A stretch of DNA of 64,000 bases from Dehalococcoidia bacterium (GTDB taxonomy: Bacteria > Chloroflexota > Dehalococcoidia > DSTF01 > RBG-16-68-14), in assembly GCA_040882355.1 (NCBI GenBank), contig JBBEBM010000004.1, forward strand, positions 112,482 to 176,481. Direction: 5' to 3'. Of this stretch, positions 2,061 through 48,054 are shown one piece after another. The translations under genes were made by a program, and so were the position numbers. Every line of letters starts with the position of its first letter. The stretch's first letter is position 1. The notes beneath the pieces are model-generated. The model saw only the letters and a program-made list of their open reading frames with translations. It was not told the DNA's origin and did no database searches.

Positions 2061-3050
2061 TTGACGAGGCTCCAGCCGATAAACTACAGTAGGGAACCCA
2101 TGACAGGACAAGACCCAAGCTGGTTTGAGTTTACGGTGTACGATACCGAGGGCGATGGCATTGAGATTCCCAAACTCGCCCGCCTGCTGGAAGACATCTC
2201 GGCAGCCTTTTACTCGATAGCCCGTGCCAAGATCGGAGCGGCAGGGTCCCGGGCCGGGCGACGAACCATCGCTGAGGAGACGATCGGCGGAGCCAGAGTT
2301 CTCCGCGTTTTGCCAGGGAGCGCCCGAATCGAGTTGGCCCCTCCCGTAAGTGCAGCCCAAGCCCAGCTTCCCCTCTTGGACGAGCCTACGGCCGACGACG
2401 TCGCATTCGAGTTCTATGAAGAGATCCGTAATATCGAGGCAGGCAGACCGGCTGCTGAGGAACGCTGGGATGTTCGGCGGCGTCTCCGAACGGTGATTGA
2501 GCACGCGGCCGAGATTGGGTCGCGAGCCGAGATCAAGTATCGGCCCCTGGTGCGCGGGCCCAATTTCCCACAGGACGCCGTTCTGATAACCAGTTTTCGA
2601 ACCAAGGAGTTGCCGTCTGAGGCGCCTGTTCGTCGTTCGAACCGTAGTCGGCGCGTCTCTGGTCACGCGTACATGGTCGACGTGGAACCTGGTAGACAGC
2701 GCCTGAGGCTGAAGCTACCGGATGGCAGAGACCTCACCGTCGAGGTCGATGGGGCTTTGGCCGCAAGGATTCCCGCCGCATTGGATCATGTGGTCGAAAT
2801 CGATGTCCAGGAGGAATTCGAAGGCGAGGTCTCCACCAGTCGGATGGCCCGCAATATCGACATCTTGGCATCGTCTGGCCGCGGAAGCGACAAGCCGCCG
2901 AAGTCTGTAGAGGAGCTTGAACGCGAACAGAATCTCCCTGCTGAGCGGCCGGACTATGTCTCACTGGCAACCACGATTTGGGAAACGGAGGATGAGGTGA
3001 CCCAGTTCGAGGAGCACATACGACAGGTCCGTCAGGCCAGTACAGCCTAG
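2061..3050 (+). CDS. Hypothetical protein, no recognisable domain; upstream partner of a PIN-like gene in a lower-GC islet (possible alternative start at 2097)
   Basis: 329-aa ORF whose GC (~58-60%) is lower than the flanking ~70%. It is 11 bp upstream of the PIN-like ORF on the same strand. No motif recognised by eye. Confidence 0.5.
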   Translation: MTRLQPINYSREPMTGQDPSWFEFTVYDTEGDGIEIPKLARLLEDISAAFYSIARAKIGAAGSRAGRRTIAEETIGGARVLRVLPGSARIELAPPVSAAQAQLPLLDEPTADDVAFEFYEEIRNIEAGRPAAEERWDVRRRLRTVIEHAAEIGSRAEIKYRPLVRGPNFPQDAVLITSFRTKELPSEAPVRRSNRSRRVSGHAYMVDVEPGRQRLRLKLPDGRDLTVEVDGALAARIPAALDHVVEIDVQEEFEGEVSTSRMARNIDILASSGRGSDKPPKSVEELEREQNLPAERPDYVSLATTIWETEDEVTQFEEHIRQVRQASTA

Positions 3051-4926: not shown

Positions 4927-6070
4927 ACCCCAACAGATCGCCCGGCTCGACGCCCTTGCGCTGGGCGAGGACGCGGATGCGCCCCAGCCCGGCCGGGTCG
5001 ATCAGCTCCTGCACGGCGCGCCTGCGCGCGTAGTACTCCTCGAGCGCGTCCGGCGATTCGCGCGCGACGCTGTCCACCCCCGCGCCGATGCCCAGGCTCG
5101 CGAGGAAACGCGCCTGCGTCGTGAGGCCGGCCGTGGCCAGGCCATGCCCTTCGCCGGCGCGCATCAGCGTCGTGAAGTCGACGTGGGCCGTGATGTCCTG
5201 CTTGCCGATGCGCGCGTAGGGGTCGGTGCTGGGGTTGTGGCGATAGAAGCAGAGCAGCGTGCCGTCGCGGCGCCAGGGCGCGTAGAGTTCGCGCGCCGGG
5301 TAGCCGTAATCGAACGTGAGGACGAAGCCGCGACCGAGCGATCGCGCGGCCTGCGCCATCCAATCGACGGCCTGGAGGTTGACCTCGGCCACGCAGCCTT
5401 CGCCGGGCGACAGGCCGAGATCGGCGAAGTACCGCGCAATGCCGTTCGTCGAGAGCGGGCGGAGCTGCGCCTCGAACCGGCCGCCGTCGTGCGAGACATA
5501 TACCTCAAGCAGGTTGCCGTTCGTCTGGGTGACGCGGTGCACCGGGAAGGCGTCGATCAGCTCGTTGCTCAGCAGGCAGCCCTCGATGCTGTCCGGAAGG
5601 TGGTCTAGCCACTCGACGTTAGGCGGCGGCGAAAGCTGCGCCAGCGTCTCCTCCTGTCGCCGGCTGAGCGCCGCGCTGATCTCGACGATGCGATAGTGCA
5701 GCGCCCCCGCGAAGTCCGGCGCCCGCGTCTGCGCCCAACGGAGGATGTCGCGGGCGAGCAGGCCGGTGCCCGCCCCCTGCTCGACGACGTCGAAGGGCGC
5801 CGGGCGGCCCATCAGCTCCCAGCACTGCGCCTGCTGCTTCGCCACCAGCGCTCCGAAGATCGGGTGCACCTCGGGGCTGGTGAGGTAGTCGCCCTGGCGG
5901 CCCATCGGCTCGCGCGTCACATAGTAGCCGAGCTGTGGGTGGTAGAGCGCCGTCTCCATGAAGTCGTGAAACGTGATCGCGCCTTCCGCGTGGATGCGCC
6001 TGCGCAGCAGCTCGACCAGCGCAGCGCTCTCGGTCGCGGCTTCGAAGTCGTCCGTGGCCCCGTAGCTCAT
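4904..6070 (-). CDS. SAM-dependent methyltransferase, MidA/NDUFAF7 (DUF185) family
   Basis: YYVTREPMGRQGDYLTSPEVHPIFGALVA ... VVEQGAGTGLLARDIL is typical of the MidA family. The likely true start is the internal MSYGATDDF; upstream of it is a Pro-rich extension. Confidence 0.8.
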   Translation of the reverse strand: MSYGATDDFEAATESAALVELLRRRIHAEGAITFHDFMETALYHPQLGYYVTREPMGRQGDYLTSPEVHPIFGALVAKQQAQCWELMGRPAPFDVVEQGAGTGLLARDILRWAQTRAPDFAGALHYRIVEISAALSRRQEETLAQLSPPPNVEWLDHLPDSIEGCLLSNELIDAFPVHRVTQTNGNLLEVYVSHDGGRFEAQLRPLSTNGIARYFADLGLSPGEGCVAEVNLQAVDWMAQAARSLGRGFVLTFDYGYPARELYAPWRRDGTLLCFYRHNPSTDPYARIGKQDITAHVDFTTLMRAGEGHGLATAGLTTQARFLASLGIGAGVDSVARESPDALEEYYARRRAVQELIDPAGLGRIRVLAQRKGVEPGDLLGFAAGDDA

Positions 6071-6173
6071 GGCTGCTCCATGGTAGCGAACGGGCGGAGG
6101 AGGCGGCGGAGAGTTCATGCAATGGCAACGCATCGGTAACAGGGACGTAAAGCTGACCCGTTAGGCTGGAAGC

Positions 6174-6754: not shown

Positions 6755-7951
6755 TCAGTGGGCGATGGCCGGGATGGGTTCGCGGGCTGGCGGGAATATT
6801 GGAACCTTCATGAACGTGAAGATGAGGCCGGCGTACCATTCCTGATCTGGCTTGCTCGGCAGATTGGTGAAGGCAGTGCATCTGCCGTTGACTTCGTCGA
6901 CGAAGTCGAAGCGCAACTGCGGGCAGTCGCGGCAGGCCCACGCCTGCGGCGGTTCTGCGCTCCGGAACGCGGTCGCCATTCGTGCTGCCACCGCGTCGAC
7001 CTTCTGGAGTTCGATTGGGGTCCATGCACAATCGAGCCGCTCGAAGACACCAGCACGCAGGCCGCCATTCTGGCCCGCATTCTTCAGGAACAGGCCCCCA
7101 ACCCACTGGGCCCACACGCCCGACACGTTCCGGACGAGTTGCCAGCGGCGGCCGTCTTCGTCCAGCCACTCAAGCTTGACCAGTCCCGTATTTCGAAAGG
7201 TCCAGCCGCCGAGCAGCGCGGCGCCCTCCGGCACGTCGTACAGTGACGCCCATTCGGTCCGCGCATTGTCCGGGTTCAGCTCCCGCCAGTTGAGCGGCAA
7301 GTAGCACGAGAGCGTGAGGAGCACATCGTTGCTGCCTTGCTGGGACGCCCACCATCGAAGGGCCGCGTTGATCACCATCGTCATCGGCCACAGGAAGAGC
7401 AGGGCGGCGAACAGCGTATAGTAGAGGACCTGCGCGACCATGAGGTGGCCTGACATGGCGATCAGCAACGTGACACCTACCAACGCCGCGAACAAACCCA
7501 TGATGACGAGGAGCATCACGCCCATCTGCGAAAAGAAGAGGCGGCTTAGTCTCACGCCCGCGCTCTTGTAGAGGTCGAAGAGGACGTAGAGCCCCAGGGG
7601 GAGCAGCGGGATTCCAACGTCAGTCTGCCTGAAGTGAGGGTCGCCAATCTTCGCGAAGAGAGCAGCGAGGCCGACGAGGGCGCACATGATCCCGCCGAGG
7701 TTCAGCGCGATCGCGCGTACTTCGCGGCCCGCCGCGCTGCTCGGCCGGGCGATTCTCAGGCCGATGAACAGGAGCACGATGGGCACCGGTGCAATGAGGC
7801 TGTTGGTGATCGTGAGCGCGATCGTAAGCGGCACCCCGCCCTCCGGCCAGCCTCCGATGCCGAGATGAGGCAGCACCCGCCAGCCGAGCTTCGCGACCAC
7901 GGCTAAGGCCACCGCTCCGAAGATGAGGGCTTGGGCTCTCGTTAGCCGCAT
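6755..7951 (-). CDS. Polytopic membrane protein of unknown function with a conserved Cys-containing C-terminal soluble domain (paralog 1)
   Basis: 398 aa. About 6 hydrophobic helices in the first ~200 aa, then a ~190-aa hydrophilic domain with DCAW, CRDC and CTAF motifs. Paralogous to 8010-9191. Confidence 0.7.
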   Translation of the reverse strand: MRLTRAQALIFGAVALAVVAKLGWRVLPHLGIGGWPEGGVPLTIALTITNSLIAPVPIVLLFIGLRIARPSSAAGREVRAIALNLGGIMCALVGLAALFAKIGDPHFRQTDVGIPLLPLGLYVLFDLYKSAGVRLSRLFFSQMGVMLLVIMGLFAALVGVTLLIAMSGHLMVAQVLYYTLFAALLFLWPMTMVINAALRWWASQQGSNDVLLTLSCYLPLNWRELNPDNARTEWASLYDVPEGAALLGGWTFRNTGLVKLEWLDEDGRRWQLVRNVSGVWAQWVGGLFLKNAGQNGGLRAGVFERLDCAWTPIELQKVDAVAARMATAFRSAEPPQAWACRDCPQLRFDFVDEVNGRCTAFTNLPSKPDQEWYAGLIFTFMKVPIFPPAREPIPAIAH

Positions 7952-8009
7952 CGTCGTACCTCCATCGCTATGCTCGGCAGGCGACGCCTTTTCGCAGCGA
8001 CGCTGACCG

Positions 8010-9191
8010 CTAGCTCACCGCGACTGCGGGCTCGGATGCCGGTGGCGCAGCGGGCGCTCTCGCCCAGATGACGAAAAGTCCCGCGTACCAGGCCGGCTCA
8101 GGCTCGTCCGGAAGATTGGTGTAGGCCACGCAGTACGTCCCGTCGATGCCGGTGAAGTCGAAGCGGAGCATCGCGCAGTCCGAGCAGACCCAGCCTGTGG
8201 AGGGTCGGTCGCGGAGCGCCGCGTGCCGATCAGCGTCGTCGCTCTCAGGCGAGTACGGCACCCAGGCACAATCGATGTTCTCGAACACACGAAAACGAAG
8301 TCCGCGGTCGCCGTTGCGCGACGCGCGGACGAAGGGCCCGGCGATCCACTGAGGCCACGGAGTGGTCGGCGCATGAGGGTACAGCAGCCAGCGCCTTCCC
8401 TCTGTGTCTGTGCACTCCAGCTTCATGAGAGGGGCGTCTTTGTGCGACCAGGCTCCGGTGAGCGCGCCGCCCGCCGGCACGTGATCCGCCTTTCGCCACT
8501 CTGCTTCGGCGTCGTCGCCGCTGAGCTGCTTCCAGCGGTTGAGCGGCAAGTAGAAGCCCGGCGCGAGCCGCACCTCGCGTTCTCCACGACGCCGAGCACT
8601 CCAGCGCAGCGCGGCGTTGAGAGGAATACATGCCAGGAGCGCTATCAGGAAGGTCGGGAACACGAGAGATAGGAGGCGCGAGAGCATGGTGCTGCCCATG
8701 GCCTGGAACGCAACGACGAGGGCGATCAGCACCGCACCGAGCAGGATCATGATCGCGGCGGCTACGGCGTTGTGGAGCAGGAAGCCGGTGCTCAGTTGGC
8801 CATGCTCATTCCGGTACGCTTCAACGAATGTCCAGATGCCCAGGGGCAAGAAGAGGACCGCGGTGCTGGCGGCCGCCAACTCTGGCTCGAACATCAAGCG
8901 GCAACCTATGGTGATTCCCACCAAGGACCAGAGGAGGGCAAGGGCTACCAGGACGTTTTGCCGGGCCTGCTTCCAGACATCGCTCGCCGGCTTCGATGCG
9001 AACAACGCGAGCGTGACCAGGGTAGGCGGGCCGAGGAGGAAGATCGAGAAGGAGATGGCATCGCCCGCCTGTACTGCCGGTTCGTCTGAGGGGCGTGCTG
9101 CGAATGCGGATACGATGCCCCACACGAACGTGAGCGAGACCGGGGCAAACAACGCCGCAGCGAACAGCTTCTGAGCCTTCGTCAGCCGCAA
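8010..9191 (-). CDS. Polytopic membrane protein of unknown function with a conserved Cys-containing C-terminal soluble domain (paralog 2)
   Basis: 393 aa. Same architecture as 6755-7951; both start MRLT(R/K)AQ.L. Shared motifs: YLPLN, GRRW, VFE.(L/I)DCAW, C.DC..LRFDF, C.A(F/Y)TNLP, WYAGL. Confidence 0.7.
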   Translation of the reverse strand: MRLTKAQKLFAAALFAPVSLTFVWGIVSAFAARPSDEPAVQAGDAISFSIFLLGPPTLVTLALFASKPASDVWKQARQNVLVALALLWSLVGITIGCRLMFEPELAAASTAVLFLPLGIWTFVEAYRNEHGQLSTGFLLHNAVAAAIMILLGAVLIALVVAFQAMGSTMLSRLLSLVFPTFLIALLACIPLNAALRWSARRRGEREVRLAPGFYLPLNRWKQLSGDDAEAEWRKADHVPAGGALTGAWSHKDAPLMKLECTDTEGRRWLLYPHAPTTPWPQWIAGPFVRASRNGDRGLRFRVFENIDCAWVPYSPESDDADRHAALRDRPSTGWVCSDCAMLRFDFTGIDGTYCVAYTNLPDEPEPAWYAGLFVIWARAPAAPPASEPAVAVS

Positions 9192-15103: not shown

Positions 15104-15425
15104 GGCGCGATCGGCGCCAGTGTAGCAGAGAACCCGCCGGGCCACAGACGTTCACAGATTGACACAGGTGGTTAGGAAGGCCCGACGCCGTAGGGGCGAG
15201 AGCCTGCCCTGAGCGAAGTCGAAGGGTCCGGTCACCCTGGGCGACTGTAGGGGCGACCATCTGGTCGCCCTGGGCGACGCAGTCGCCGCAACTGCGCGCG
15301 ACCCCGCGGTCAACGCCTTCCAGCGCGCGGCCGGCTTCCACGGAGCGGCCATGATCCGTGTTGCATCTGTGCCAATCTGTGTGCATCTGTGGCTGATATC
15401 CGGCGTCTGCTACCATGCAATCGTT

Positions 15426-16100
15426 ATGTCTGAAGCCCCCGTAACCGAGCTGATGGTGCGCGGCATCGTCGTCGGCGTGTTCGCCGAAAACTGCTGGGTG
15501 ATCGGGTCGCGGCGCAGCGGCGAGGGCATCGTCGTCGACCCGGGCGACCAGCCGGAGGAGATCCTGGCGCTGGCGAAAGACATGGGCGTGAACGTCAAGC
15601 TGATCGTCAACTCGCACGCGCACATCGACCACATCCTGGGCGTGCGTGGTGTGCAGCAGGCGACGAACGCGAAGTTCCTCCTCCACCCGGGCGATCTGGA
15701 GATCGCGCGGACCGGGCATCTGGCGGCCGCGCGCATGCTCGGGCGCGACGTCGAGCCGCCGCCCGACCCGGACGCCGGGCTCTCGGACGGCGATGAGGTG
15801 GCGGTGGACGGCCTGAAGCTGACGGTGATCCACACGCCGGGCCATACGCCGGGCAGCGTCTCGTTCTACACGGAAGGCCTGCTCTTCAGCGGCGACACGC
15901 TCTTCCGAGGCTCGATAGGCCGTACCGACCTGCCCGGCGGCGACTACCGGCAGGAGATGGCGAGCATCGTCGACAAGCTGCTCGCGCTGCCCGACGACAC
16001 CGTCGTCCTGCCCGGCCACATGGAGGAGACGCGCATCGGCCAGGAGCGCGCGGCCAACCCCTTCGTCCTGGAGGAGCTCGAGCGCCGGCGGGCCGAGTGA
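15426..16100 (+). CDS. MBL-fold metallo-hydrolase (glyoxalase II-like)
   Basis: The HxHxDH motif SHAHIDH, TPGHTPGS, and a final GH metal-ligand motif. Start taken at MSEAPV, the internal Met of the track ORF. Confidence 0.8.
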   Translation: MSEAPVTELMVRGIVVGVFAENCWVIGSRRSGEGIVVDPGDQPEEILALAKDMGVNVKLIVNSHAHIDHILGVRGVQQATNAKFLLHPGDLEIARTGHLAAARMLGRDVEPPPDPDAGLSDGDEVAVDGLKLTVIHTPGHTPGSVSFYTEGLLFSGDTLFRGSIGRTDLPGGDYRQEMASIVDKLLALPDDTVVLPGHMEETRIGQERAANPFVLEELERRRAE

Positions 16101-16110
16101 GGAGCGTTAC

Positions 16111-16866
16111 GTGGCTGGCGGTGGATCGCTGGGGCTCGTAAGGGAAAAGCTGGACTGGGCCGGACATCACCTGAATGCTCTCGAACACGAGATCCAAGCC
16201 TTCAAAGACACGGACCCGATTCCCGTTGGCAGAGAGTTTGACCTGAAGACGACGGAGGAGGTTTGGTACGTCGATGGCGTTTCCCAAGAGCCGCCCAGGA
16301 GGCTAAGTTTCATCGCGGGAGATTTCCTCTCGAACCTCAGGGCCAGCCTGGACTACTTGGTCTGGCAACTTGTGTTGGAGAACGGGGGCACGCCGGAGCG
16401 GAGCAACGCGTTCCCTATCTGTGCCAAGCCGTCCGCTTGGGCCTCCGCCCTTAGCAGGGACAGGCTAAAGGGGACAAGCGACAAGGCGGTAACAGCGATC
16501 AAGGGGCTCCAGCCATGCTTCGGAACGAATCCGTACAGGAACCAATGGCTTCAGTGGATCGACGACCTCGCCGTAATCGATAAACACCGACACCTGCACC
16601 TGTTCACTGCTGGTACTGAGGGAGGATTCTTTCTGCCAGGAGTCCCGATGGACTCCGTGTTCGAGATCCGAAATGGCCGTGTTGAGAACGGCACGGAGTT
16701 GGCCCGCCTCGGCGGTCACCATCCCGGCGTGAATTTCGCTCCGGCAATTGGCATAGCCTTCCGGGCGGGTGGAGCAGCGAGCGATGAGTCCGTCCGAATG
16801 ACGTTCTACGCAATTCGTGAAATGGTCAAAATTATACTGGAAGAGTTCTCCGAACTCTTCTCTTAG
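16111..16866 (+). CDS. Hypothetical protein encoded on a low-GC insert (no recognised domain)
   Basis: 251-aa ORF with ~57% GC in a ~70% GC context. It is bounded downstream by tandem duplications of the neighbouring gene's 3' end. Confidence 0.5.
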   Translation: MAGGGSLGLVREKLDWAGHHLNALEHEIQAFKDTDPIPVGREFDLKTTEEVWYVDGVSQEPPRRLSFIAGDFLSNLRASLDYLVWQLVLENGGTPERSNAFPICAKPSAWASALSRDRLKGTSDKAVTAIKGLQPCFGTNPYRNQWLQWIDDLAVIDKHRHLHLFTAGTEGGFFLPGVPMDSVFEIRNGRVENGTELARLGGHHPGVNFAPAIGIAFRAGGAASDESVRMTFYAIREMVKIILEEFSELFS

Positions 16867-16945
16867 CCCAGCATTCCCATCGAGCGGATTTTGGCCGAGC
16901 TTCGACGAAAAGGGGAGTTGGCATCGCACTGGGCCGCCTCCAGCG

Positions 16946-17410
16946 TCCAGCCTCGAACCCCGAGCTTCGAGCCGCTAGCTTCGAGCGTCTACAGTTCGTA
17001 CCTGGTGCCGACGCTGGTCTGGATGAACGCGTCCGGCCCTCACCCCTGCCTACCAGCTTCCCCTCTCCCATTGGGAGAGGGGCGTGAGCTAGGAAGACGT
17101 TTCATGCAGCCGCCGACTCGGGGTGAGGGTCGCGGCGCTCCCGCCTCGAGCTTCGAGCCTCGAGAACCCGCCTACAGCTCGTACCGCGTGCCGGCGCTGG
17201 TCTGGATCCCTCACTCCTGCCCTTCGCTTCGCTCGAGGGCGGGCTCTGCCGGCATCCCCTCTCCCATTGGGAGAGCGGCGCGATCGAGGCGGGCGTTGCA
17301 TGGAGGCGCAGAGTCGGGGTGAGGGTCGCGGCGCTCCCGCCTCGAGCTTCGAGCCTCGAGGACCCGCTACAGCTCGTACCTGGTGCCGACGCTGTTCTGG
17401 ATGAAGGCGT
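16946..17410. repeat. About 2.4 tandem copies of a 186-196 bp unit duplicating the last ~70 nt of the MBL-hydrolase gene 17367-18353 plus a downstream 23-nt perfect palindrome
   Basis: The string gagcttcga..tacagctcgtacc..gtgccg.cgctg.tctggat recurs at 16962, 17148 and 17344. cccctctcccaTtgggagagggg occurs at 17060-17082 and a near-identical copy at 17256-17276. gtcggggtgagggtcgcggcgctcccgcc occurs at 17116 and 17312. Confidence 0.75.
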
Positions 17411-18353
17411 CGGGGAGGCAGGCTGCCAGCGCGTGGATGGCGCGCCAGCCGGTGCAGTGCGCGGGCACCAGCACCTCCGGCGCCAGCGCGGCGAGCGCCT
17501 CGCAGGTCGCGCCGATGATCGGCTCGAAGAGGGGGCCGTTCAGGTGGAAGCCGCCAATGACTGCATAGACGCGCTCGACGCCGGTCAGCTTCTGCGCGTA
17601 ACGCACGATGTTGACGACGCCGGCGTGGCCGCAGCCGGTGAGCACGACGAGCCCCTTGTCGCGGACGTGGAGGATGGCGGCCTGGTCGTCGAGGATGAGT
17701 GGGTCGGGCTGCCAGTCGCCGTCGCGGAACGCCTGGTGGATCGGGAAGCCCTTCTCGAACTCCGTCGTGCGGTCCACCTCGCCCGTGATCAGCAGCGAGT
17801 TGTCGAGCAGGAACGACGGCTGCCGCTCCTCGATCACCTCGAAACCGGCGCCCTGCAGCGCGGACTTGCTCGTCGAGGGCAGCTCGAACGGGTCGCGCCC
17901 GGGGATGGCGATCCGGCGTCGCGACCAGAACTCAGGGTGGATGATCACCGGCAGGTTCGGCCGGCCGAGCGCGCGTACCAGCCCGTCGAGGCCGACGGTG
18001 TGGTCGAAGTGGCCGTGGCTGAGCACGATCGTCTCGAAGTCCTTCGGCGAGAGGTCGAGGCGGCGCATGTTCTCGACGAGGCCGTCGGGCGTCACGCCCG
18101 CGTCGAAGAGCACCCGATGCTCTCGCCTGTTCTTCGTGACGCTGATCAGCGCCGAGAAGCCGTGCTCCGCGAGCAGCGCCTCGGTGACCTCGCCCGCCTC
18201 GAGCAGCGGCGCTCGCACGCGCGGCGGCCGCACCGTCGACGCGAGGCCGACACGCTTCGCCGGGCCCTGGTCCAGCAGCAGGCTGTCGGTCACGTTGTCG
18301 ACGAGGACGGTGATGTGAACGGAGTCGACCGGTTCGAGATGGATCGTGGTCAC
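17367..18353 (-). CDS. MBL-fold metallo-hydrolase
   Basis: 328 aa. HxHxDH motif SHGHFDHTVG, plus later His/Asp ligands (GCGHAG). Confidence 0.8.
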   Translation of the reverse strand: MTTIHLEPVDSVHITVLVDNVTDSLLLDQGPAKRVGLASTVRPPRVRAPLLEAGEVTEALLAEHGFSALISVTKNRREHRVLFDAGVTPDGLVENMRRLDLSPKDFETIVLSHGHFDHTVGLDGLVRALGRPNLPVIIHPEFWSRRRIAIPGRDPFELPSTSKSALQGAGFEVIEERQPSFLLDNSLLITGEVDRTTEFEKGFPIHQAFRDGDWQPDPLILDDQAAILHVRDKGLVVLTGCGHAGVVNIVRYAQKLTGVERVYAVIGGFHLNGPLFEPIIGATCEALAALAPEVLVPAHCTGWRAIHALAACLPDAFIQNSVGTRYEL

Positions 18354-19810: not shown

Positions 19811-20584
19811 TCAGTCCTCCTCCGGCACGTAGGTACGGTAGTAGCCGACCTGCTCGAATCCCATCCGGCGGTAGATCGGCTCGCCCATCTCGGATGCCTG
19901 CAGGTTCGCGATCGCGCAGCCGGCGGCCGCGCCCTCGTTGAGCGCGTGGCGCGTCATCGCCTCACCGAAGCCGCGCCGGCGCGCCTCCTCAACCGTCGCG
20001 ACGTAGTAAACGCCGGCGACGCCTTCGGTAAAGACGAGCTGCGACGTGGCGACAGGCCGCCCGTCCCGGTAGCCGACGTAGCCGCGCCATTCGGGCGCCT
20101 CGATCAAACGCGGCGTGAAGACACCGGACAGTGTCGTCGTCTTCCACTCGAATCCCTCCGCGACGACCGCCGTGTGGTCGCGCAGCGTCGCTTCGTCGTC
20201 TACGAGCCGGACCGTGAGCTCCGAGACACTGGCATCCGCGCGCAGCGGGCTCAGGGCGAGGCATGGAATGCCGCCGTGCCGCTGCAGGCCCCATTCCGCC
20301 AGATCGTCCTCCGAAGGCGCGGGCGCCCCTTCGAGAAAGCGGAGGCGGAACGGCAAACCGCGATCGCGGAAGTAGGCGGACACCTCGGACAGCGTCTCGA
20401 CCGGGCGCTCCGGGCGCTGTTGCAGGAAGACGTTGTTGAACGACCGCATGGGCACGCTCGACGCCGCGATCGTCAGGCCGTCGCGCTCCCAGCACTCGCC
20501 GCCGTCGCAGGCGGACGCCCAGACCTGGGTCGCGCACACCAGGTTCGCGTCCGCGCCCGCGACGAGCGCTTCCGCCGTCATCAT
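19811..20584 (-). CDS. GNAT family N-acetyltransferase
   Basis: The C-terminal VATVEEARRRGFGEAMTRHAL acetyl-CoA-binding motif (R/Q-x-x-G-x-G/A) and fold length fit GNAT. Confidence 0.7.
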   Translation of the reverse strand: MMTAEALVAGADANLVCATQVWASACDGGECWERDGLTIAASSVPMRSFNNVFLQQRPERPVETLSEVSAYFRDRGLPFRLRFLEGAPAPSEDDLAEWGLQRHGGIPCLALSPLRADASVSELTVRLVDDEATLRDHTAVVAEGFEWKTTTLSGVFTPRLIEAPEWRGYVGYRDGRPVATSQLVFTEGVAGVYYVATVEEARRRGFGEAMTRHALNEGAAAGCAIANLQASEMGEPIYRRMGFEQVGYYRTYVPEED

Positions 20585-20690
20585 TGCGTGAACTCGTCCC
20601 ATGTGCGCGTCCCGCCCCCGTCCAACAACGGCGCAACGGTGCGCATCGACTGAATGTAGTTGGCGTCGGCCACGGCCGCGAGGTCTTCAG

Positions 20691-24859: not shown

Positions 24860-25306
24860 CTACTGGCCGGGTGTCGAATCAGGGAGGCTGTCCGTGACGA
24901 TGAACTCGTCACCTTTCTGCTCGATTATGAGCCTCTTTCCCGAATCATTCCACTCCCCGCACGACGCCGTTCTTCTATAGACCTCGCGTCCTCCCTCTTT
25001 GACGGTGATGATCACGGGGATCGGTCTGTCGTCCACCTGATCTCTGGCCCCCCCGCCACAGTCCCTCCCCCAGTCTGCACTCGACTGCGGTTTTAGTTCT
25101 TGCAGGCAGTTGGCCGCTGCCGCGTCTAGTGGTGGTGACGGGTAGTAGCAAAGGGGTGCGTCAGTACGGTTGTCCAAGTTGAATAACACCTCTCCCTGAT
25201 GGAAGGGGAACCAGCCACAGCCAGCGACAATGACCGTCAACGGCACCAGCAGAGTCGCGAGGCACCGCCGTGCCCACCTCGCGGCGCCCCGGGCGGAACT
25301 CATGGC
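24860..25306 (-). CDS. Hypothetical lipoprotein (low-GC gene)
   Basis: Internal start MSSARGAARWARRCLATLLVPLTVIVAGCG is a signal peptide with a lipobox. Cys-rich mature part. GC is clearly below the surroundings. Confidence 0.45.
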   Translation of the reverse strand, partial: AMSSARGAARWARRCLATLLVPLTVIVAGCGWFPFHQGEVLFNLDNRTDAPLCYYPSPPLDAAAANCLQELKPQSSADWGRDCGGGARDQVDDRPIPVIITVKEGGREVYRRTASCGEWNDSGKRLIIEQKGDEFIVTDSLPDSTPGQ

Positions 25307-25507
25307 GGAGCGGCTCCTAGACCGGCTTGTATCACTTGTCGTCAGCCCCATCGGCAATAGGATAGCAACGCTGCCTTTCCCGCCAGGTTGGTGGTCGTGC
25401 CGTTATTATCGACCACTTGCGTGCGCCTGCGCCTGCGCATCGGCGTCTGGCTGCGATCGGGCGGCGGCGCAGGCGTGGCTGCGGGCCTGTGTGGTTGTAC
25501 TCAAACG

Positions 25508-28718: not shown

Positions 28719-30016
28719 AGGCGTGCCTCCTTGGCTGCGGGCGAGACCTCCATCGGCTTGGACGGCTCCAGCGCGGTGAGCTGGCGGAACATGCGCAGGT
28801 AGTCGCGGAGGTAGCGCGTGATCAGAAAGCGCTCGCGCACGTACTCGCGGCCGGCGGCGCCCATCTGGTCCGACCGTTCCTGATCGGCTAGGAGCGCGCC
28901 CACGCGCTGCGCGCACTCTTCAATGGTGTGTACCAGATAACCGGTCTCGCCATCGACGATCTGGAGCGGGATGCCGCCGACGTTACCCGCGACGACAGGG
29001 CGCCCCTTCCAGAGCGCCTCGGAGACGACGAGTCCGAACCCCTCGCGAACGGATTTCTGGACGACCACGTTCGCGCGCTGGAAGGCGTTCACCTCGACGT
29101 TGCCGACGCCGTTGAGGTTGGAGAGGATATGGATGTCGTAGTCCTCGCCGGCGCGGCGAACGGTGCGCTCGTACCAGGCCCAGCCCTCCGGATCGTCGTG
29201 GGCCATCGACGCGATCAACACGAGCTGCAGATCTGGTACCGTACGCTTCGCCTGACGATAGACCTCAATCACGCCCAGCGGGTCCTTCCACGGGTCGAAG
29301 CGTGAGATCTGGGCGATGAACGGCCGGCGGTGGTCGACGCCGTAGCGTTCGAGGAGCAGCTCGTAGGTCTCGGAGGAGAGCTCGACGTTCTTCGGGCTGA
29401 GCGGGTCGATAGCTGGCGGGATGATGAAGATCTGGGGCCCGCGCAGGTCTTCCTTGACGTAGTCAGGCGTGGTGAAGATGGCGCCATCGTATTCCAGGAT
29501 GTAGGGCTTGAGGATATCCCACGTCTGGACTTGCGCCTCGGTGAGGTCGATGTGGCAGCGCCACACCCACTTGCCGCCCGCGTGCGGCGAGCCCTCCGCC
29601 CGCAGGATCGCCGGGATCGCTGCCGGCTGCGGGTCGTGGACGAGGACGAAGTCGTAGCTCTCGTCGAAGCGCTCGGCGTTGAGATGGTTGTGGTGGAGCC
29701 AGATCTCGCGCAGCTCGGGTCGCCAGTCCACGTACATGCCCTGCAGGCTGTTATGCATCAGCTTGGTGACCTGGTAGAACTCGTCCGACCCGTGGATCAC
29801 TTGCCACTCGGCCTGCAGGCCGACGTCGTTCATCAGGGGCACGAGCGTGGCCAGGATCTCAGCCACTCCTCCGCCGAAGGAGGTCGAGTTGATGTGCAGG
29901 ACGCGCGCCCCGGCTAACGACGCCGCAAGCCGGCGAATCTCGTCGACGCGGTCATCGCCGATCACGGGACGGTAGTCGTCCAGCGCCTTGGGGGAAAACG
30001 GTACGGATCCGAGCAT
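28715..30016 (-). CDS. GT4 (GT-B) glycosyltransferase, TreT-like (NDP-glucose-dependent)
   Basis: 433 aa. A C-terminal Glycos_transf_1 core (E-x7-E region GFGLVVSEALWKGRPVV) and N-terminal features resembling trehalose glycosyltransferring synthase. Adjacent to glgC. Confidence 0.7.
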   Translation of the reverse strand: MLGSVPFSPKALDDYRPVIGDDRVDEIRRLAASLAGARVLHINSTSFGGGVAEILATLVPLMNDVGLQAEWQVIHGSDEFYQVTKLMHNSLQGMYVDWRPELREIWLHHNHLNAERFDESYDFVLVHDPQPAAIPAILRAEGSPHAGGKWVWRCHIDLTEAQVQTWDILKPYILEYDGAIFTTPDYVKEDLRGPQIFIIPPAIDPLSPKNVELSSETYELLLERYGVDHRRPFIAQISRFDPWKDPLGVIEVYRQAKRTVPDLQLVLIASMAHDDPEGWAWYERTVRRAGEDYDIHILSNLNGVGNVEVNAFQRANVVVQKSVREGFGLVVSEALWKGRPVVAGNVGGIPLQIVDGETGYLVHTIEECAQRVGALLADQERSDQMGAAGREYVRERFLITRYLRDYLRMFRQLTALEPSKPMEVSPAAKEARL

Positions 30017-31279: not shown

Positions 31280-31557
31280 GCTTCCCTCCTGGCCCGCCCG
31301 GCAAAGAAACAGCCCGAAGCGGATGCCCGGGCCGGACAGGCCTCTCGCTTGCTGCCTACGGGGTTAGCTGTCGGGTTCGGGCTGAGAGGCTGCCCTATCC
31401 CCCGTTCCTTCGGGCGGAATTCACCCCGGTCTATGTGGGTCCCCCGCTTCTCCCAGAGAACTCGGCTCTTGTCAGCCGGTATGGTAGCGCGCCGCGTTCG
31501 AGGCTGTCAACGAGGGGTCGCCGGTGGTTGGTCGGCTGAGTGCCGCGGAACGAACGC

Positions 31558-32256
31558 CTATCGGGTCCGGCGCGCCTGCAGCGCTGCCCGCAGGAGGATC
31601 AGGGCGCCCGCGCCTGCCAGCAGCAGGAGCGCCCCTGACGGAACGCCATCGGATCCGGCGAGATCGCCGCCCCCGGCGGAGGGCAGGCTGACGCCGGCGC
31701 CGGCGTCACTTGCAGGCGGCGTAGGCGAGGAGCCGGCGCCTGCAAGGTTGCCGCCGGGCGCCGTGGCGGTCGCGGATGGACTGGAGGTGGGCGTCTCGGC
31801 TGGCGCCGCCGTGGCGGGCGCCTCGGTGGCCACCGGCTGGGTGGCTGTCGTTGTGCTGGCGGGCGTCGCTGTCGCCGCCGCGGTGCTCGTGGCAGTCGGC
31901 GTTGTGGTGGCGGTGGCGACTGGCGTGTCTGTGGGCGTGGCGGTGGGGGTGTTGGTCGCTGTTGGAGTCGATACTGGCGTGTGGGTCTCGGTAGCCGTGG
32001 TGGTGGGGCTGGAGGTAGGCGTGGCTGTCGCGGTCGGGGTATCCGTGGTTGTCACGGTTGGCGTGTCGGTGAGCGTATCAGTCGGAGTGGCGGTCGGCGT
32101 GTCCGTCGCGGGGCCCGTGGGCGTGTCTGTCTCGCAGAGGCAGGCAGCCGCAAGCGCGGGCTGCTGTTCGTCCGGCGGGCGCGCGGTGACGAGCACCAGG
32201 GCGATCGCGGCCGCGATCAAGGCCAGTGCCGCGAGCGGGCGAGGATTGATGATCAT
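31558..32256 (-). CDS. Thr/Pro-rich secreted repeat protein with a sortase-like C-terminal sorting signal (LPSAG + TM + RRTR)
   Basis: 232 aa. N-terminal signal peptide, about 120 aa of (T/P/A)-rich low-complexity repeats, then a C-terminal LPSAGGG, a hydrophobic stretch LLLLAGAGALILL, and a basic tail. Confidence 0.6.
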   Translation of the reverse strand: MIINPRPLAALALIAAAIALVLVTARPPDEQQPALAAACLCETDTPTGPATDTPTATPTDTLTDTPTVTTTDTPTATATPTSSPTTTATETHTPVSTPTATNTPTATPTDTPVATATTTPTATSTAAATATPASTTTATQPVATEAPATAAPAETPTSSPSATATAPGGNLAGAGSSPTPPASDAGAGVSLPSAGGGDLAGSDGVPSGALLLLAGAGALILLRAALQARRTR

Positions 32257-32434
32257 CCGAGGCTTCTCTCCATGATCAGCGTCGCTCAGGAGCGGCGCTC
32301 CGATGGTGATGTTCGACAGCCGGCGCCCGGATCGCCAGCCACCAAAGGGGCGACGCCGGGTCTGTCGAAGGGAGGACGAAGGCCGGTTTGCGCCGCCAAA
32401 CGGGTCGGCCTACCATGTCCGCAGCGAGCCCTCG

Positions 32435-33316
32435 ATGAACCAGCCTCCGAACCCCGCCCAACGCGTCTCCGCCATCCCGTTCCCTGATTCGTACACCCCG
32501 CCCGCACTTTCGAAGGACGCGCCGCGTTCGGAGCTGGACTCGTACCGCCAGACCCAGTTCCTGCTCGGGGACGACCTCCGGCTCTTCGGGGAGGGGATGA
32601 ACCTGCAGCTTCGCATCGTGCGCGACGCGTCGCCCTCGTCGTTTCGCAAGCACCCCTACGCCGCCCTGATGGGGCTCTGGTCGCGCACCTTTCTGACGCT
32701 CGCGGACGCCTGCCTGCTCACCGTGCGCGGCTCGTACGGCTCGTGCCCGGTGCTCGCGCGCGCCGCCTGCGAGTACATCGCGGCCCAGCACCAGCTCCAC
32801 TCGGGCGAAATGGATCTCTTCCTGGAATGGCTGGCGGCGAACCTGCGCCCGAACGACGAGTACAAGGCGACGGAGGTAGGCATGGGCCGCTACTTCGCGG
32901 GCGAGACCTTGGCGGGCGACGAACGGTTGCGCGCCGTCTACCGCCCGGCGAGCGAGCTCGGGCGGCCCAACTTCGGCGCGACGCTGCTCCAGGTCGGGCC
33001 GGAGTCGAACAACGTGCGTCTCGCGCTCAGCTTCGCGGACACGGCCTTCCACTTTGGCTGGGCGCAGCTCGTGCTGGGGTGGCTGCTTGCGCTCTGCGAG
33101 CGGCAGCTCGCCGTCGCTGTCCACGCCAAGGGCGTCTTCCCGATCCACGAAGACACGCATCGCGCCTACGCCGACTTCGCCCACAGAGTCGATCAAGTCC
33201 TCGCCAAGCACGACCGATGCTTCATTGAGGAAGTAGATGTCGGTTCGCACAGGCGGTTTCTGGTTCACGGCTTTCGACGGGCGCCCAGCGGTGCCGCGAA
33301 GAAGGTCCTCCTCTAG
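32435..33316 (+). CDS. Hypothetical protein (no recognised domain)
   Basis: ORF with good coding periodicity; start chosen at the internal MNQPPNP, because the upstream part of the track ORF is Arg-rich. Precedes two S33 peptidase genes. Confidence 0.4.
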   Translation: MNQPPNPAQRVSAIPFPDSYTPPALSKDAPRSELDSYRQTQFLLGDDLRLFGEGMNLQLRIVRDASPSSFRKHPYAALMGLWSRTFLTLADACLLTVRGSYGSCPVLARAACEYIAAQHQLHSGEMDLFLEWLAANLRPNDEYKATEVGMGRYFAGETLAGDERLRAVYRPASELGRPNFGATLLQVGPESNNVRLALSFADTAFHFGWAQLVLGWLLALCERQLAVAVHAKGVFPIHEDTHRAYADFAHRVDQVLAKHDRCFIEEVDVGSHRRFLVHGFRRAPSGAAKKVLL

Positions 33317-33335
33317 GCGCCCAACCTCAGCCCTG

Positions 33336-34868
33336 ATGCTTGTCGCCGCGGTTGCGGTCGCGGTGCTCGCTGTCGCCTGCGAGGGCGGGTCGGCACAACA
33401 GGCCAGCGCGCCGGCTCCCACGCCGACGATTTCGCCGACCCCGGGCCCGACCCCGTCGCCGGGCGAGCGCTACGAACGGATCGCCTGTCCGTTCGATGTT
33501 CCGCTCGGCCGCCTCATCGAGTGCGGGTACCTCCGGGTGCCTGAGAACCGCAACGACCCGCAGAGTCGCCACATCGAGCTGGCCGTGGCCGTCGCAAAGA
33601 GCGACAGCCCTGACCCGCGGCCCGATCCGATCGTGTACCTGGAGGGCGGTCCCGGCGGCAGCATCCTCAAGATCGCGCCGCAGGCCTTCGAAGGGTGGTT
33701 CTCGCCGTTCGTCGCGGAGCGGGACGTGATCATGTTCGATCAGCGCGGCATCGGACGCTCCAAGCCGGCGCTCGACTGCCCGGAGTTCAACGACGCCTAC
33801 GTCGATGCAGTCGAGCGGGGCGTGCGGAGGCAGGCCTTCAGCGACCTGATCGTGGGCGCGATGGCCTCCTGCCACGAGCGCCTCGCGGCGCGGGAGATCG
33901 ATCTCTCCGCCTACAACAGCGCCGAGAGCGCGGCGGACCTCCAGGACCTGCGTCTGGCGCTCGGCTACGAGCAGTGGAACCTGTACGGCATCTCGTACGG
34001 CACCAGGCTCGGCCTGACCGCGATGCGCGACTACCCGCAGGGCATTCGCAGCGTGATCCTCGATTCCAGCTATCCACCGCAGGCCGACCTTTACGCGGAG
34101 CTGGTGCCGAACGCCAGGCGCGCGTTCAACGAGCTCTTCGAGGGCTGCCGGCAGGACGGCGCCTGCAACGCGGCGTATCCCGATCTGGAGCGCGTCGTCT
34201 TCGAGGTGGCGGCCCGGCTGGACGCCGAGCCCGCCGATCTCTCCGTCTGGAACCCGGCCACCGACAAGACGATCGAGGCGAAGATGAGCGGCGACGTGTT
34301 CCTCTCGTCGCTGTTCCAGGCCCTCTATTCGACAGACGCGAACGCCTATCTGCCCGCCATCGTCTACGCGGCGTACGAAGGCGACGTCGAGCCGCTCACG
34401 CCGCTGTTGGGCGACCTCTTCTTCGTCCACGACAGCCTGTCCACGGGCATGCACTATTCGGTGCAGTGCCGTGAGGAGGTACCGTTCAGCTCCGCCGAGA
34501 ACGTCGCCGCGGCGGCACAAGCCGATGCTGGCCTGGCGCACGCGTTGGGAGAGCCGATCTTCGTCATCTGTGAGGACTGGGGTGTCGCGCAGCCTGATCC
34601 GAAGGAGAACCAGCCCGTACGCAGCGAGATCCCGACGCTGGTCCTGGCCGGCGAGTACGATCCGATCACGCCTCCGGCCTGGGGGCGCCTGGTCTCAGAC
34701 GACCTGACGAACAGCTTCTTCTTCGAGTTCCCGAACGTCGGTCATGGCGCGAGCGTCGCCGATATCTGTCCGCTCCTCATGACCCTCGCGTTCCTGGACA
34801 ATCCGACCGCTTCGCCGGACTCCTCGTGCATCGCCGAGATGCCGCCGCCCGATTTCGAGTTGCCGTAG
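33336..34868 (+). CDS. Alpha/beta-hydrolase S33 family peptidase lipoprotein (tripeptidyl/prolyl aminopeptidase-like), paralog 1
   Basis: Lipoprotein signal MLVAAVAVAVLAVAC, a TP-rich linker, GGPGGS oxyanion region, nucleophile elbow GISYGTRLG, and a C-terminal catalytic His (VGHGAS). Confidence 0.8.
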   Translation: MLVAAVAVAVLAVACEGGSAQQASAPAPTPTISPTPGPTPSPGERYERIACPFDVPLGRLIECGYLRVPENRNDPQSRHIELAVAVAKSDSPDPRPDPIVYLEGGPGGSILKIAPQAFEGWFSPFVAERDVIMFDQRGIGRSKPALDCPEFNDAYVDAVERGVRRQAFSDLIVGAMASCHERLAAREIDLSAYNSAESAADLQDLRLALGYEQWNLYGISYGTRLGLTAMRDYPQGIRSVILDSSYPPQADLYAELVPNARRAFNELFEGCRQDGACNAAYPDLERVVFEVAARLDAEPADLSVWNPATDKTIEAKMSGDVFLSSLFQALYSTDANAYLPAIVYAAYEGDVEPLTPLLGDLFFVHDSLSTGMHYSVQCREEVPFSSAENVAAAAQADAGLAHALGEPIFVICEDWGVAQPDPKENQPVRSEIPTLVLAGEYDPITPPAWGRLVSDDLTNSFFFEFPNVGHGASVADICPLLMTLAFLDNPTASPDSSCIAEMPPPDFELP

Positions 34869-35007
34869 ATCGGGCAAGCGCCCATCGCTGTCCCCTCCGT
34901 GTGTCTCTAGGCGAAGGTGTGTGCGCCGTCCTGTCAACGCGGCTTTTCGCTGGCGCTGCCGCGAACGTGCTGTTATAACGCGAAAGCGCGTCGACGAGGA
35001 GGCGGCG

Positions 35008-36561
35008 ATGGTCTGTCGTTTGAGGCTCTCAGCGTTCGTAGTGCTGCTCGCCCTGGTCGCGGGCTGCGGCTGGGGCGGCTCGTCGCCCAGCGCGACGCCG
35101 ACGCCCACGGTCACGCCCACCCCAACGGTCACGCCTACGCCGACGCCGCTGCCGCAAGACCGATACGAGGCTGCAGACTGTCCATTCGAGGTGGCGGAGG
35201 ATCGCACGGTCGAGTGCGGCTACCTGAGTGTGGCGGAGAGCAGGTTGAAACCTAACACTCGCAGCATCCGTCTGGCCGTCGCGGTTGTGAAGAGCGGGAG
35301 CGAGGCGCCAAAGCCGGACCCTGTCGTCTTCCTAAGCGGCGGGCCCGGAGGCAGCGTTATCCAGGTTGCGGGTGCCGAGCTCGGAGATCTCTTGGGTCCG
35401 CTCGCGGAGGAACGAGACCTGGTTCTCCTTGACCAGCGCGGCGTGGGGAAGTCCGAGCCGGCTTTGGAGTGTCCAGAGTTCATGGACGCGCTTCGATCTG
35501 GCATCATGGCAGGGCTGCTCGCGGCCTCGCTTGGTGAGCGGACAGTCGGCCCGCTGGCGGCCTGCCATGATCGGCTCGTGCGCGAGGGAGCAGACCTGAC
35601 CGGCTACACGAGCGCTGAGAGCGCAGCCGACCTCAACGACTTGCGGATCGCTCTGGGATATGACGAGTGGAACCTGTTCGGAGGTTCCTACGGCACAAGG
35701 CTCGCCCTCACAGCCATGCGTGACCTACCCGAAGGAATACGCAGTGTGATACTCGACTCGACGTATCCAATCGAGAGCGACCTTTACAGCGAAGTGCCTT
35801 CCAATGCCCGCCGATCGTTCGATGTCCTCTTCAATGGCTGTCGCCAGGATCCGGAGTGCAACGCGAGGTGGCCGAATCTTGAGCGAGCCTTCTTTGATGT
35901 GATCCGGCGACTCAATGAGCAGCCGCCCACCGTTTCCATTCGTGACTACTCGACGGACGAAACAATAGATGTCCCGCTGACGGGCGATCTGGTTCTGTCG
36001 GGCTTCTTCCTGGCGCTCTACTCAAAGGAGTGGATCCCAACGCTTCCGTACCTCATCGCTCAGGCGGAAGAAGATCCCGAGCAAGCCAAGCCGTTGGCGG
36101 AGTTCCTGCTCGCCATGAATGGTTCGATCAGCCTCGGGATGCATTATTCGGTGCAGTGCCAGGAGGAAGTGCCATTCACTTCCGCGGATCGTATCGCAGG
36201 GGCCGAGCAGGCTAACGAAGAGCTGCGTTTCCTGTCCGAGAGCGAGCCAATCTTCGCGCTCTGCGGACCCTGGAAAGGGGCGCCGCCTGACCCGAAGGAG
36301 AACCAGCCCGTGCGCAGCGACATCCCGACGCTGGTCCTGGCTGGCGAGTACGACCCGATCACGCCCCCGGCCTGGGGGCGGCTGGTCTCGGAGGACCTGA
36401 CGAACAGCTTCTTCTTCGAGTTCCCCGGCATCGGCCACGGCGCCAGCGGCGCTGACGCCTGCCCGCAGGGCATTACCCTCGCGTTCCTCCACGAGCCGGC
36501 TGTCTCGCCGGACTCGTCATGTATCGCGGAGATGCCGCCCCCGGACTTCCTTGTGCCCTAG
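35008..36561 (+). CDS. Alpha/beta-hydrolase S33 family peptidase lipoprotein, paralog 2
   Basis: Signal and lipobox LLALVAGCG, TP linker, GGPGGS, GGSYGTRLA, IGHGAS. Collinear with the preceding paralog. Confidence 0.8.
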   Translation: MVCRLRLSAFVVLLALVAGCGWGGSSPSATPTPTVTPTPTVTPTPTPLPQDRYEAADCPFEVAEDRTVECGYLSVAESRLKPNTRSIRLAVAVVKSGSEAPKPDPVVFLSGGPGGSVIQVAGAELGDLLGPLAEERDLVLLDQRGVGKSEPALECPEFMDALRSGIMAGLLAASLGERTVGPLAACHDRLVREGADLTGYTSAESAADLNDLRIALGYDEWNLFGGSYGTRLALTAMRDLPEGIRSVILDSTYPIESDLYSEVPSNARRSFDVLFNGCRQDPECNARWPNLERAFFDVIRRLNEQPPTVSIRDYSTDETIDVPLTGDLVLSGFFLALYSKEWIPTLPYLIAQAEEDPEQAKPLAEFLLAMNGSISLGMHYSVQCQEEVPFTSADRIAGAEQANEELRFLSESEPIFALCGPWKGAPPDPKENQPVRSDIPTLVLAGEYDPITPPAWGRLVSEDLTNSFFFEFPGIGHGASGADACPQGITLAFLHEPAVSPDSSCIAEMPPPDFLVP

Positions 36562-47307: not shown

Positions 47308-47423
47308 GTCGAGGTGAGTATAGGGACGCGCTGGCGGGCGGCGCTAGCGGGAGGGCTGGGCATCCGCGTGCGTGGGTGCTAGGATCGGCGTACGATGCAG
47401 GTGGCTCAGCCGGAGGTATCTCA

Positions 47424-48044: not shown

Positions 48045-48054
48045 CCGCGAATCG

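Follow-up and report, generated by a model that had tools for sequence, protein, structure and literature searches.

The repeat array at the end of the hydrolase gene

We analysed a window of 64 kb, that is, the whole stretch of 64,000 nucleotides (nt) taken from contig JBBEBM010000004.1 of a Dehalococcoidia bacterium, in which the 3' end of a gene for a metallo-beta-lactamase (MBL)-fold metallo-hydrolase is present three times in tandem. The copies belong to a small repeat array which lies between this gene and a convergent orphan gene (Table 1). Tandem repeats of the gene end had been proposed in a sequence-only reading of this DNA and are confirmed by a repeat search and by blastn of the region against the window. 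The direct repeats are far above chance: positions 17144-17402 match 16958-17207 over 263 columns at 77.6% identity (E = 7e-54), and a second match pairs 17340-17414 with 16958-17036 at 82% (E = 6e-17).

In the orientation of the gene, the array consists of tail C, unit E1, tail B, unit E2, tail A, a piece of DNA resembling the start of E, and then unique DNA. Each tail includes the stop codon (at 17367, 17172 and 16989), and the re-copied coding part amounts to the last 48, 36 and 48 nt of the gene in tails C, B and A, the remainder of the repeat being post-stop DNA; the earlier estimate of a re-copied last ~70 nt thus holds for the repetition of the gene end and not for the extent of its coding part. 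The periods given before as 186 and 196 bp become stop-to-stop spacings of 195 and 183 nt. Both spacings are multiples of 3, which places the three tails in one frame, with a probability of 1 in 9 by chance. Reading the in-frame stops as a readthrough signal was rejected: extra stops intervene and the frame is taken as a coincidence of that order. The whole layout can be written O-E'-O-E'-O, in which O is the gene tail plus ~31 nt and E' is a segment of 104-128 nt between 13-nt inverted repeats. The terminal O, which is the distal copy, has no E': beyond tail A, homology to the start of E continues for 31 nt and then ends. In that part, a 14-nt mini-tandem (16949-16984, 2.6 copies) overlaps 16934-16962, which is homologous over 29 nt to the start of E (25 matches in 30 alignment columns).

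The two units have the same internal organization, with a CTCGAGG-type motif after the stop, followed by a segment within the 13-nt inverted repeats CGACCCTCACCCC...GGGGTGAGGGCCG and a central palindrome. They are 93% identical over the first 60 nt, including a block of 47 nt which is exact, and 70-87% identical after it; E1 is the longer one through an extra stretch of 25 nt. The palindrome had been described as perfect in both units. It is so in E2, with 11-nt arms and a central T, and the copy of E1 carries one mismatch (...GAGAGCGG); neither this mismatch nor the one in the outer arm of E1 is compensated on the other side of the stem.

Table 1. Features of the hydrolase gene end, the repeat array and the adjoining genes, in window coordinates
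Feature	Position	Strand	Description
MBL-fold metallo-hydrolase gene	17367-18353	-	328 amino acids (aa), ends ...PDAFIQNSVGTRYEL and stop; Pfam Lactamase_B and Lactamase_B_2
Tail C, first O copy	17367-17414	-	Working last 15 codons and TAG stop (48 nt, PDAFIQNSVGTRYEL and stop); O homology on to ~17336
Unit E1	17208-17366	-	159 nt; post-stop motif CTCGAGGCTCGAAGCTCGAGG; outer inverted-repeat arm 17316-17325; palindrome 17256-17278; 25-nt extra insert; outer arm GGAGTGAGGG at 17208-17217 with one mismatch
Tail B	17172-17207	-	36 nt; relic of last 11 codons and stop, IQTSAGTRYEL and stop
Unit E2	17037-17171	-	135 nt; post-stop motif as in E1; 13-nt inverted repeats 17034-17046 and 17120-17132; perfect palindrome 17060-17082
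Tail A	16989-17036	-	48 nt; relic of last 15 codons and stop, PDAFIQTSVGTRYEL and stop; 92% identical to tail C
Post-stop part of third O copy	16934-16988	-	~55 nt resembling start of E, then unique sequence to the stop of the orphan gene
47-nt exact repeat	17118-17164 and 17314-17360		Break point of independent short-read contigs
Orphan gene, convergent	16111-16866	+	251 aa, WEE64_00935; G+C at third codon positions (GC3) 0.69; HEPN-like helical core; outside the tail-bounded segments, not in the array
Second MBL-fold gene	15351-16100	+	In relative L005, 14 nt from the convergent MBL stop, the unexpanded state of the site

The reality of the repeat was checked against Logan contigs from the read sets SRR27977658 and SRR27977661, which match the window over 15866-17147 at 100% identity and also reproduce the MBL gene plus 36 nt. 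In both read sets the contigs break within the 47-nt exact repeat. Because these independent contigs match both flanks and break in the exact repeat, the repeat is present in the reads; what they show is the flanks and not the number of middle units.

Relic tails and the locus in relatives

The MBL gene is very widely conserved: its relatives number 475 on genome contigs, as confirmed by tblastn, and 5968 among database proteins at E <= 1e-100. Of the best 80 genome loci, nearly all align through the last residue (328), so that the repeated tail is truly derived from this gene. The reading frame and the TAG stop are kept in all three tails. With the nearest relatives as reference, the changes specific to the relics are synonymous in five of six cases (P = 0.002 with 0.215 as the neutral fraction; P = 0.04 with the conservative value of 0.4). 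Every codon state of the relics occurs in functional orthologs, exactly so except for CGG (Arg) of tail B, which is matched by the related codon CGC. In one case ACC (Thr) is common to relics A and B and to the nearest relative (L123, 91%), and the working tail C has AAC (Asn). The tails are also better conserved (89-92%) than the right half of E, where identity falls to 0.70 in the most divergent 30-nt block and the 25-nt indel is found. By their sequences, the tails look like former working ends of the gene, the numbers being small. The longest block common to all three is 7 nt; a longer core may have been lost as the copies diverged after the event.

We compared the locus with 80 genome loci, the best of the 475, and with 84 further loci (80 from a metagenome scan plus L123-L126). 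None of them has the spacer, the palindrome or the orphan gene downstream of the MBL gene, and the array is seen in none. Two relatives display the site in its unexpanded form: in L005 (77% aa identity) two convergent MBL genes lie 14 nt apart, and an 88% relative (JGI 3300056388) with the same synteny has in the slot of the orphan a gene of 264 aa without Pfam match, at 96 nt from the MBL gene, which leaves no room for the array. Since this relative has a gene in the slot and no array, the slot gene is older than the array. In the window, the distance between the stop of tail A and that of the orphan is 122 nt and resembles the 96-nt gap; because of this, it is the distal copy, tail A, that looks like the original end of the gene, and 378 nt would have been added between it and the gene body. 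Duplicated tails were seen in only 2 of ~165 loci, and the MBL gene end as a recurrent hot spot of insertion was rejected. The contig of the 91% relative (JGI 3300053780 Ga0483989_0083427) ends one base past the MBL stop, and that of L132 within 1-2 nt of it; these ends hint that a repeat may follow the gene there as well, without proving it.

The palindrome and the BoxC/PIT/TMECO motif

Judged from its sequence, the palindrome corresponds to the core of a published motif, BoxC/PIT/TMECO (CCCTCTCCC-loop-GGGAGAGGG with CCCTCACCC/GGGTGAGGG on its flanks), but has a non-canonical spacing. Positions 17061-17081 read CCCTCTCCC-ATT-GGGAGAGGG, the two-block core of the family, and 17257-17277 read the same with one mismatch. 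The palindrome is therefore not unique but the core of a dispersed family, although it is not dispersed in the 64-kb window, where no further occurrence was found. The published pattern (HPGQ) is a C-rich CCCTCNCCC N3-6 G-rich GGGNGAGGG N3 GGGNGAGGG, and 3610 occurrences were counted in 262 proteobacterial genomes; they are intergenic, often near gene 3' ends or between convergent genes, and have been linked to local sequence variability, local deletions and rearrangements (Holder et al. 2015, PMC4666352; Kaplan et al. 2016, PMC5100583). The formation of an intrastrand triplex or G-quadruplex in vitro serves as a criterion for the family. In the same literature, neither promoter nor terminator activity is reported for PIT/TMECO (PMC4666352; PMC5100583).

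The locus shares with this family the 9-mers in equal order and orientation (CCCTCACCC, CCCTCTCCC, a 3-nt loop, GGGAGAGGG and GGGTGAGGG) and the intergenic position just past a gene 3' end, between convergent genes. It differs by its spacers: the third block is present, but 14 nt (minus strand) or 37 nt (plus strand) away instead of 3, and the strict regular expression has no match in the window. It differs also by its single locus in the 64 kb covered here, the family criterion being many dispersed copies in a whole genome, and by the duplication of a gene end, which is not described for the family. In IMG/VR, the 19-nt core of the palindrome occurs in 37 contigs of widely differing G+C. Of the 40 occurrences, 33 have CCTCACC upstream or GGTGAGG downstream within 60 nt, for the most part at a distance of 5-7 nt, against an expectation of 0.013 such 7-mers per side. 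The 1.34 Mb of related loci contain 4 further sites of the motif. Canonical copies with the TTA loop of the E. coli type are found 16-18 nt past stop codons in the Dehalococcoidia bins L048 and L052, and related copies in L005 and L016. The family, which had been catalogued mainly in Proteobacteria and reported before that from Synechocystis and H. influenzae, is thus present in Dehalococcoidia and in many viral contigs as well, and here it stands exactly at what we read as a recombination scar, which fits its published tie to local genome instability.

Two other hairpin or repeat families were encountered in the related loci. A second triple-block hairpin (CCCTTCCCCC-N5-GGGGGAAGG-N3-GGATGGGGG), with the architecture of TMECO and another sequence, is dispersed in Dehalococcoidia bins (L041 5996-6033 and 7449-7485; L048 9874-9917; L016 3566-3623 and 7796-7852), and one of its copies in L041 directly follows the MBL stop codon. 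In L052, a dispersed element of 132 nt begins right after the MBL stop codon (586-716 and 5991-6120, 91% identity between the copies).

Mobile elements and the orphan gene

The sequence-only reading had interpreted the array as the scar of a site-specific integration into the gene terminus, lying next to an orphan gene, with no integrase present. The last point is correct, since a Pfam sweep of the 59 open reading frames (ORFs) of the window found no domain of an integrase, recombinase or transposase. The interpretation itself stands in part. Direct repeats of the target 3' end do flank the inserts (tails C, B and A around E1 and E2), the frame and stop are kept, relatives have an empty site, and a triplicated gene end occurs at another locus (see below); there is no integrase in the window, no cargo (the segments between the repeats are non-coding) and no preserved core longer than 7 nt, and since other genes also have such relic tails, with unrelated cargo, a general recombination process is indicated and not a single site-specific element. 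The proposed link to the orphan gene does not hold. The orphan as cargo of the array was rejected: it lies outside the tail-bounded segments, its homologs are found in unrelated contexts without these repeats, and the 88% relative has its slot gene without the array.

The family of the orphan protein is rare (24 matches among 5.8 billion proteins), and a match in Pfam, NCBIfam or PADLOC was not obtained. Its structural model is confident and predicts a helical core matching HEPN domains, so that the protein may be called HEPN-like; a Foldseek search of the model against the PDB found nothing. The residues R77, D81 and K158-H159-R160 are invariant, and the canonical Rx4-6H motif is not present at a conserved position. 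The orphan as the missing recombinase was rejected on the same database searches and on the HEPN match of the model core.

Several known systems were compared with the array. An integron attC site was rejected, because neither core site (RYYYAAC ... GTTRRRY) is present in 16867-17420 and no IntI was found, and so was a diversity-generating retroelement, as the differences between copies are not adenine-specific and there is no reverse transcriptase. A prophage or viral att site was also discarded, as IMG/VR yielded neither a relative of the MBL gene nor the architecture of E'; the plasmid and phage collections gave no match. With miniature inverted-repeat transposable elements (MITEs) and elements of the repetitive extragenic palindromic (REP) type, E' shares its small size, its non-coding nature, its enclosure within 13-nt inverted repeats and its ability to form a hairpin. 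Contrary to MITEs, the flanking repeats measure ~80 nt with no short target-site duplication, and no other copy was seen in the window. Nor does the array fit REP or REPIN elements, as it contains no GTAG signature, the window has no other copy of the palindrome, and neither a Y1 transposase nor a REP-associated tyrosine transposase (RAYT) is there.

A parallel may be found in the ssrA islands of Dehalococcoides, in which a fixed 20 bp repeat of the tmRNA gene bounds kilobase-sized islands carrying genes and, in many cases, the serine recombinase DsiB (McMurdie et al. 2011, PMC3146451). There as here, direct repeats of the target 3' end part tandem segments, some islands have no integrase, and both fall in the same class; in our case the repeat is a protein-coding end of 36-48 nt plus ~31 nt, the segments measure 135-159 nt without coding capacity, and no recombinase is present in the window. 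Another likeness is with the integrase-free addition of DNA beside a homologous anchor, for which there is experimental proof in transformable bacteria, where recipient DNA is usually deleted (2002, summarised in PMC6382021). By analogy, foreign or variant DNA may have been added here beside a homologous anchor too; such a process would account for cargo that is arbitrary, relics that vary in length and target genes that are many at the loci described below. A displaced gene end kept as a direct repeat, which we infer here, is not a documented outcome of that process.

The same layout at other loci

A self-comparison of 166 loci (1.39 Mb) combined with manual inspection added four cases to a first one, L007, so that the succession of gene, stop, insert and relic tail is found at five other loci of related metagenome genomes, with varied cargo. 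In L007 (Chloroflexota bin, JADFPV010000007.1, 5879-10712), the end of the locus's own MBL gene is present three times, with gene-carrying segments of 2.3 kb in between. Its tail copies show clear coding constraint, 8 of 9 and 8 of 11 differing codons being synonymous (P < 5e-5). The second segment is orthologous to native neighbours in L008. In the third copy, what is left of the two convergent gene ends (MBL and MFS) runs on in frame into the first 11 codons of an SDR-like gene. Past its working MBL stop, L007 also has a YHS-like C-terminal fragment.

The other inserts differ in size and content. In L008 (10356-10832), the nitroreductase stop and a relic of 45 nt enclose exactly one ORF, which is SnoaL-like and encodes 126 aa. 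In L010 (2134-2458, the same as L207 7149-7473), a non-coding insert of 233 nt with the inverted repeats GTCATTCTGAGC/GCTCGGAATGAC follows PmbA. In L124 (9713-11165, also L125 and L126), an MBL gene is inserted after the end of a deiodinase-like gene, with 148-nt direct repeats (90.5% identity) on both sides, and still has a 16-codon relic of its usual upstream neighbour PmbA. In L135 (4313-5203), the relic is that of a Zn-ribbon C-terminus. Across the loci, the relics measure between 36 and 148 nt. ORF inspection and database gene calls revealed no recombinase in the inserts, a domain-library scan of the inserts not being part of the search. The insertion of L124 adjoins SIR2-HerA and DndB genes, a setting that looks like a defence island.

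Origin of the array

The reading that we favour, with a confidence that stays a little short of even, is that the array began as an insertion bringing its own gene end, was amplified by unequal recombination and is now a decaying scar. The anatomy suggests that DNA with a BoxC/TMECO-type E' (~100 nt, within 13-nt inverted repeats) would have been inserted in the last 36-48 nt of the MBL gene, which would have left a copy of O (tail, stop and ~31 nt) on either side of the insert; the gene would have remained intact, and its displaced end would have become an untranslated relic downstream. The incoming DNA most likely had a gene end of its own, which would imply Campbell-type or homology-anchored recombination with a closely related donor, through general recombination functions. 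A long target duplication at a staggered break (~80 nt) may have occurred in place of an imported gene end. General recombination is preferred over a dedicated integrase because no recombinase was found, the relics vary in length and the targets at the other loci are unrelated. In a second step, unequal recombination between the O copies on either side would have doubled the O-E' unit to O-E'-O-E'-O, and partial gene conversion may later have left the 47-nt exact block. Since E1 and E2 are closely similar and have the same junction with the next tail, one event followed by unequal recombination is the simplest scheme. The last step, degeneration, is shown by the uncompensated stem mismatches and by the 25-nt indel in one unit, and the units read as decaying. 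The structure-prone, BoxC-like palindrome is likely the reason why the site is recombinogenic.

A number of observations weigh against this reading. Both E units meet the next tail at the same position (GGRGTGAGGG followed by the tail), which fits a site-specific join, or one event and a duplication, better than two independent illegitimate joins. No donor locus with E' downstream of the MBL gene was found in the 80 genome loci, the 80 metagenome loci, IMG/VR, plasmids or phages. The identity of the 3' part of the gene to its nearest relative shows no drop, so that a long foreign replacement is not visible and was rejected. The test for a synonymous bias of the relics is based on six substitutions only, and fossil alleles kept by occasional gene conversion could mimic such a bias. 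Finally, within this genome the searches for a recombinase and for copies of E' cover the 64-kb window, and a recombinase acting in trans may be encoded elsewhere.

A purely local origin, by slippage or unequal crossing-over at the palindrome, would have triplicated the gene tail with its downstream palindrome, after which the third palindrome unit was lost and the copies drifted. We consider it rather unlikely, though it would account well for units that are homologous, adjacent, co-oriented and share the exact block, for the lack of cargo and of an external donor, and for the local deletions and rearrangements reported with BoxC/TMECO. A simple duplication of O and E' is insufficient, because the terminal O without E' needs an extra and precise deletion; slippage is further disfavoured as the origin of the first O-E'-O because the intergenic region beyond has its ancestral size (96-122 nt, with no room for E') and because the substitutions are constraint-like: the relic changes are biased to synonymous ones and match functional orthologs, where random decay would be expected of non-coding duplicates. 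In addition, the tails are better conserved than the right half of E. Slightly less probable still, in our judgement, is a site-specific scar in which two miniature or degenerate cis-mobilisable elements, with gene-end flanks similar to attL/attR, owe their tandem integration to a recombinase of the tyrosine or serine type whose gene lies elsewhere in the genome. The lack of an integrase in 64 kb, and of one recognised by inspection beside the five analogous loci, speaks against this scenario, as do the variation of the repeats from 36 to 148 nt, the unrelated target genes, the 7-nt limit of the block shared by the tails, the size of the 185-195-nt unit, very small for an excisable circle, and the fact that IMG/VR yielded no relative of the MBL gene. 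In its favour are the tandem direct repeats of a gene 3' end, the common join position, the triplicated end of L007 around gene-carrying segments, and the parallel with the accretion of cis-mobilisable elements (CIMEs) at ssrA, where Dehalococcoides has tandem islands, some without integration modules.

Two further explanations deny that the array is a scar, or that it exists as such. The hairpins could be a selected cis-element between the convergent genes, acting as a bidirectional terminator, a stabiliser of the 3' untranslated region or a small RNA, with its structure under selection. E2 indeed folds well as single-stranded RNA (-66.7 kcal/mol; z = -3.7 on one strand and -4.1 on the other, against shuffled sequences), it sits between convergent genes and BoxC-type motifs are frequent near gene 3' ends, but the fold of E1 is no better than that of shuffled sequence (z = -0.7 and -0.4) and the differences between E1 and E2 disrupt stem pairs without compensation. 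No intrinsic terminator (G+C-rich hairpin plus T-run) was found in 15900-17700 and no promoter consensus site was seen, an Rfam scan of 16500-17800 gave no covariance-model match at E <= 1, the literature reports neither activity for PIT/TMECO, and the unit is in none of the relatives with readable downstream DNA; a selected element is therefore very improbable. The array looks like a decaying recombination scar and not a working genetic system. Hardly credible, lastly, is an assembly artefact of the short-read bin. The source is a metagenome-assembled genome whose short-read contigs break at the 47-nt exact repeat, but the copies differ by 8-25%, so they are not identical repeats collapsed or expanded by the assembler, the middle unit has the exact repeat on both its sides, which is possible only within an array of at least 2 units, and both flanks are reproduced exactly by the independent contigs.

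By itself this locus matters little: it is a small and non-functional variant of known phenomena, namely direct repeats of gene ends at insertion sites and dispersed hairpins of the BoxC type. Together with the five other loci, it makes six independent events of the gene, stop, insert and relic-end type in ~1.4 Mb of related DNA, with varied cargo and a recombinase recognised in none. This recurrence raises the question whether these uncultured bacteria commonly gain genes through homology-anchored additive recombination. As a speculation to which we give a low probability, relics of gene ends may mark an integrase-free process of insertion in Chloroflexota, in which homology-anchored DNA repeatedly displaces the 3' end of a conserved gene, the incoming piece being anything from a BoxC-like hairpin or a single ORF up to several genes. 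If so, the displaced ends would form a readable stack of former working ends, and hairpins of the BoxC/TMECO type would be break or join points, or small passengers carried with a spare gene end.

Neighbouring genes and other features of the window

Close homologs of the MBL gene bear in JGI the name 7,8-dihydropterin-6-yl-methyl-4-(beta-D-ribofuranosyl)aminobenzene 5'-phosphate synthase. The gene is surrounded by core genes: PmbA/TldD, GNAT and amidohydrolase upstream, and the second MBL gene, DUF2203, UPF0047 and PMT_2 downstream. The ORFs 16891-17322 and 17123-17404 of the plus strand exist and, as had been suggested, are spurious products of the repeats, for which the array thus accounts; the GC3 of the former is 0.72, against 0.87-0.95 for the genes flanking the locus of the orphan and the array. 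Four other ORFs without Pfam match and with a low GC3 (0.66-0.77) stand amid core genes of high GC3 (2061-3050, 24860-25357, 28928-29917 and 31349-32275) and may be foreign or spurious. ARAGORN predicted a tRNA-Val (anticodon TAC) at 19956-20037 on the minus strand, inside the GNAT acetyltransferase ORF 19811-20602, which is probably a false positive. The window also contains three tandem pairs of paralogs (33237-36561, 47301-48666 and 6755-9191), namely a pair of alpha/beta hydrolases (67% nt identity), one of GNAT acetyltransferases (68%) and one of ~395-aa proteins without Pfam match.
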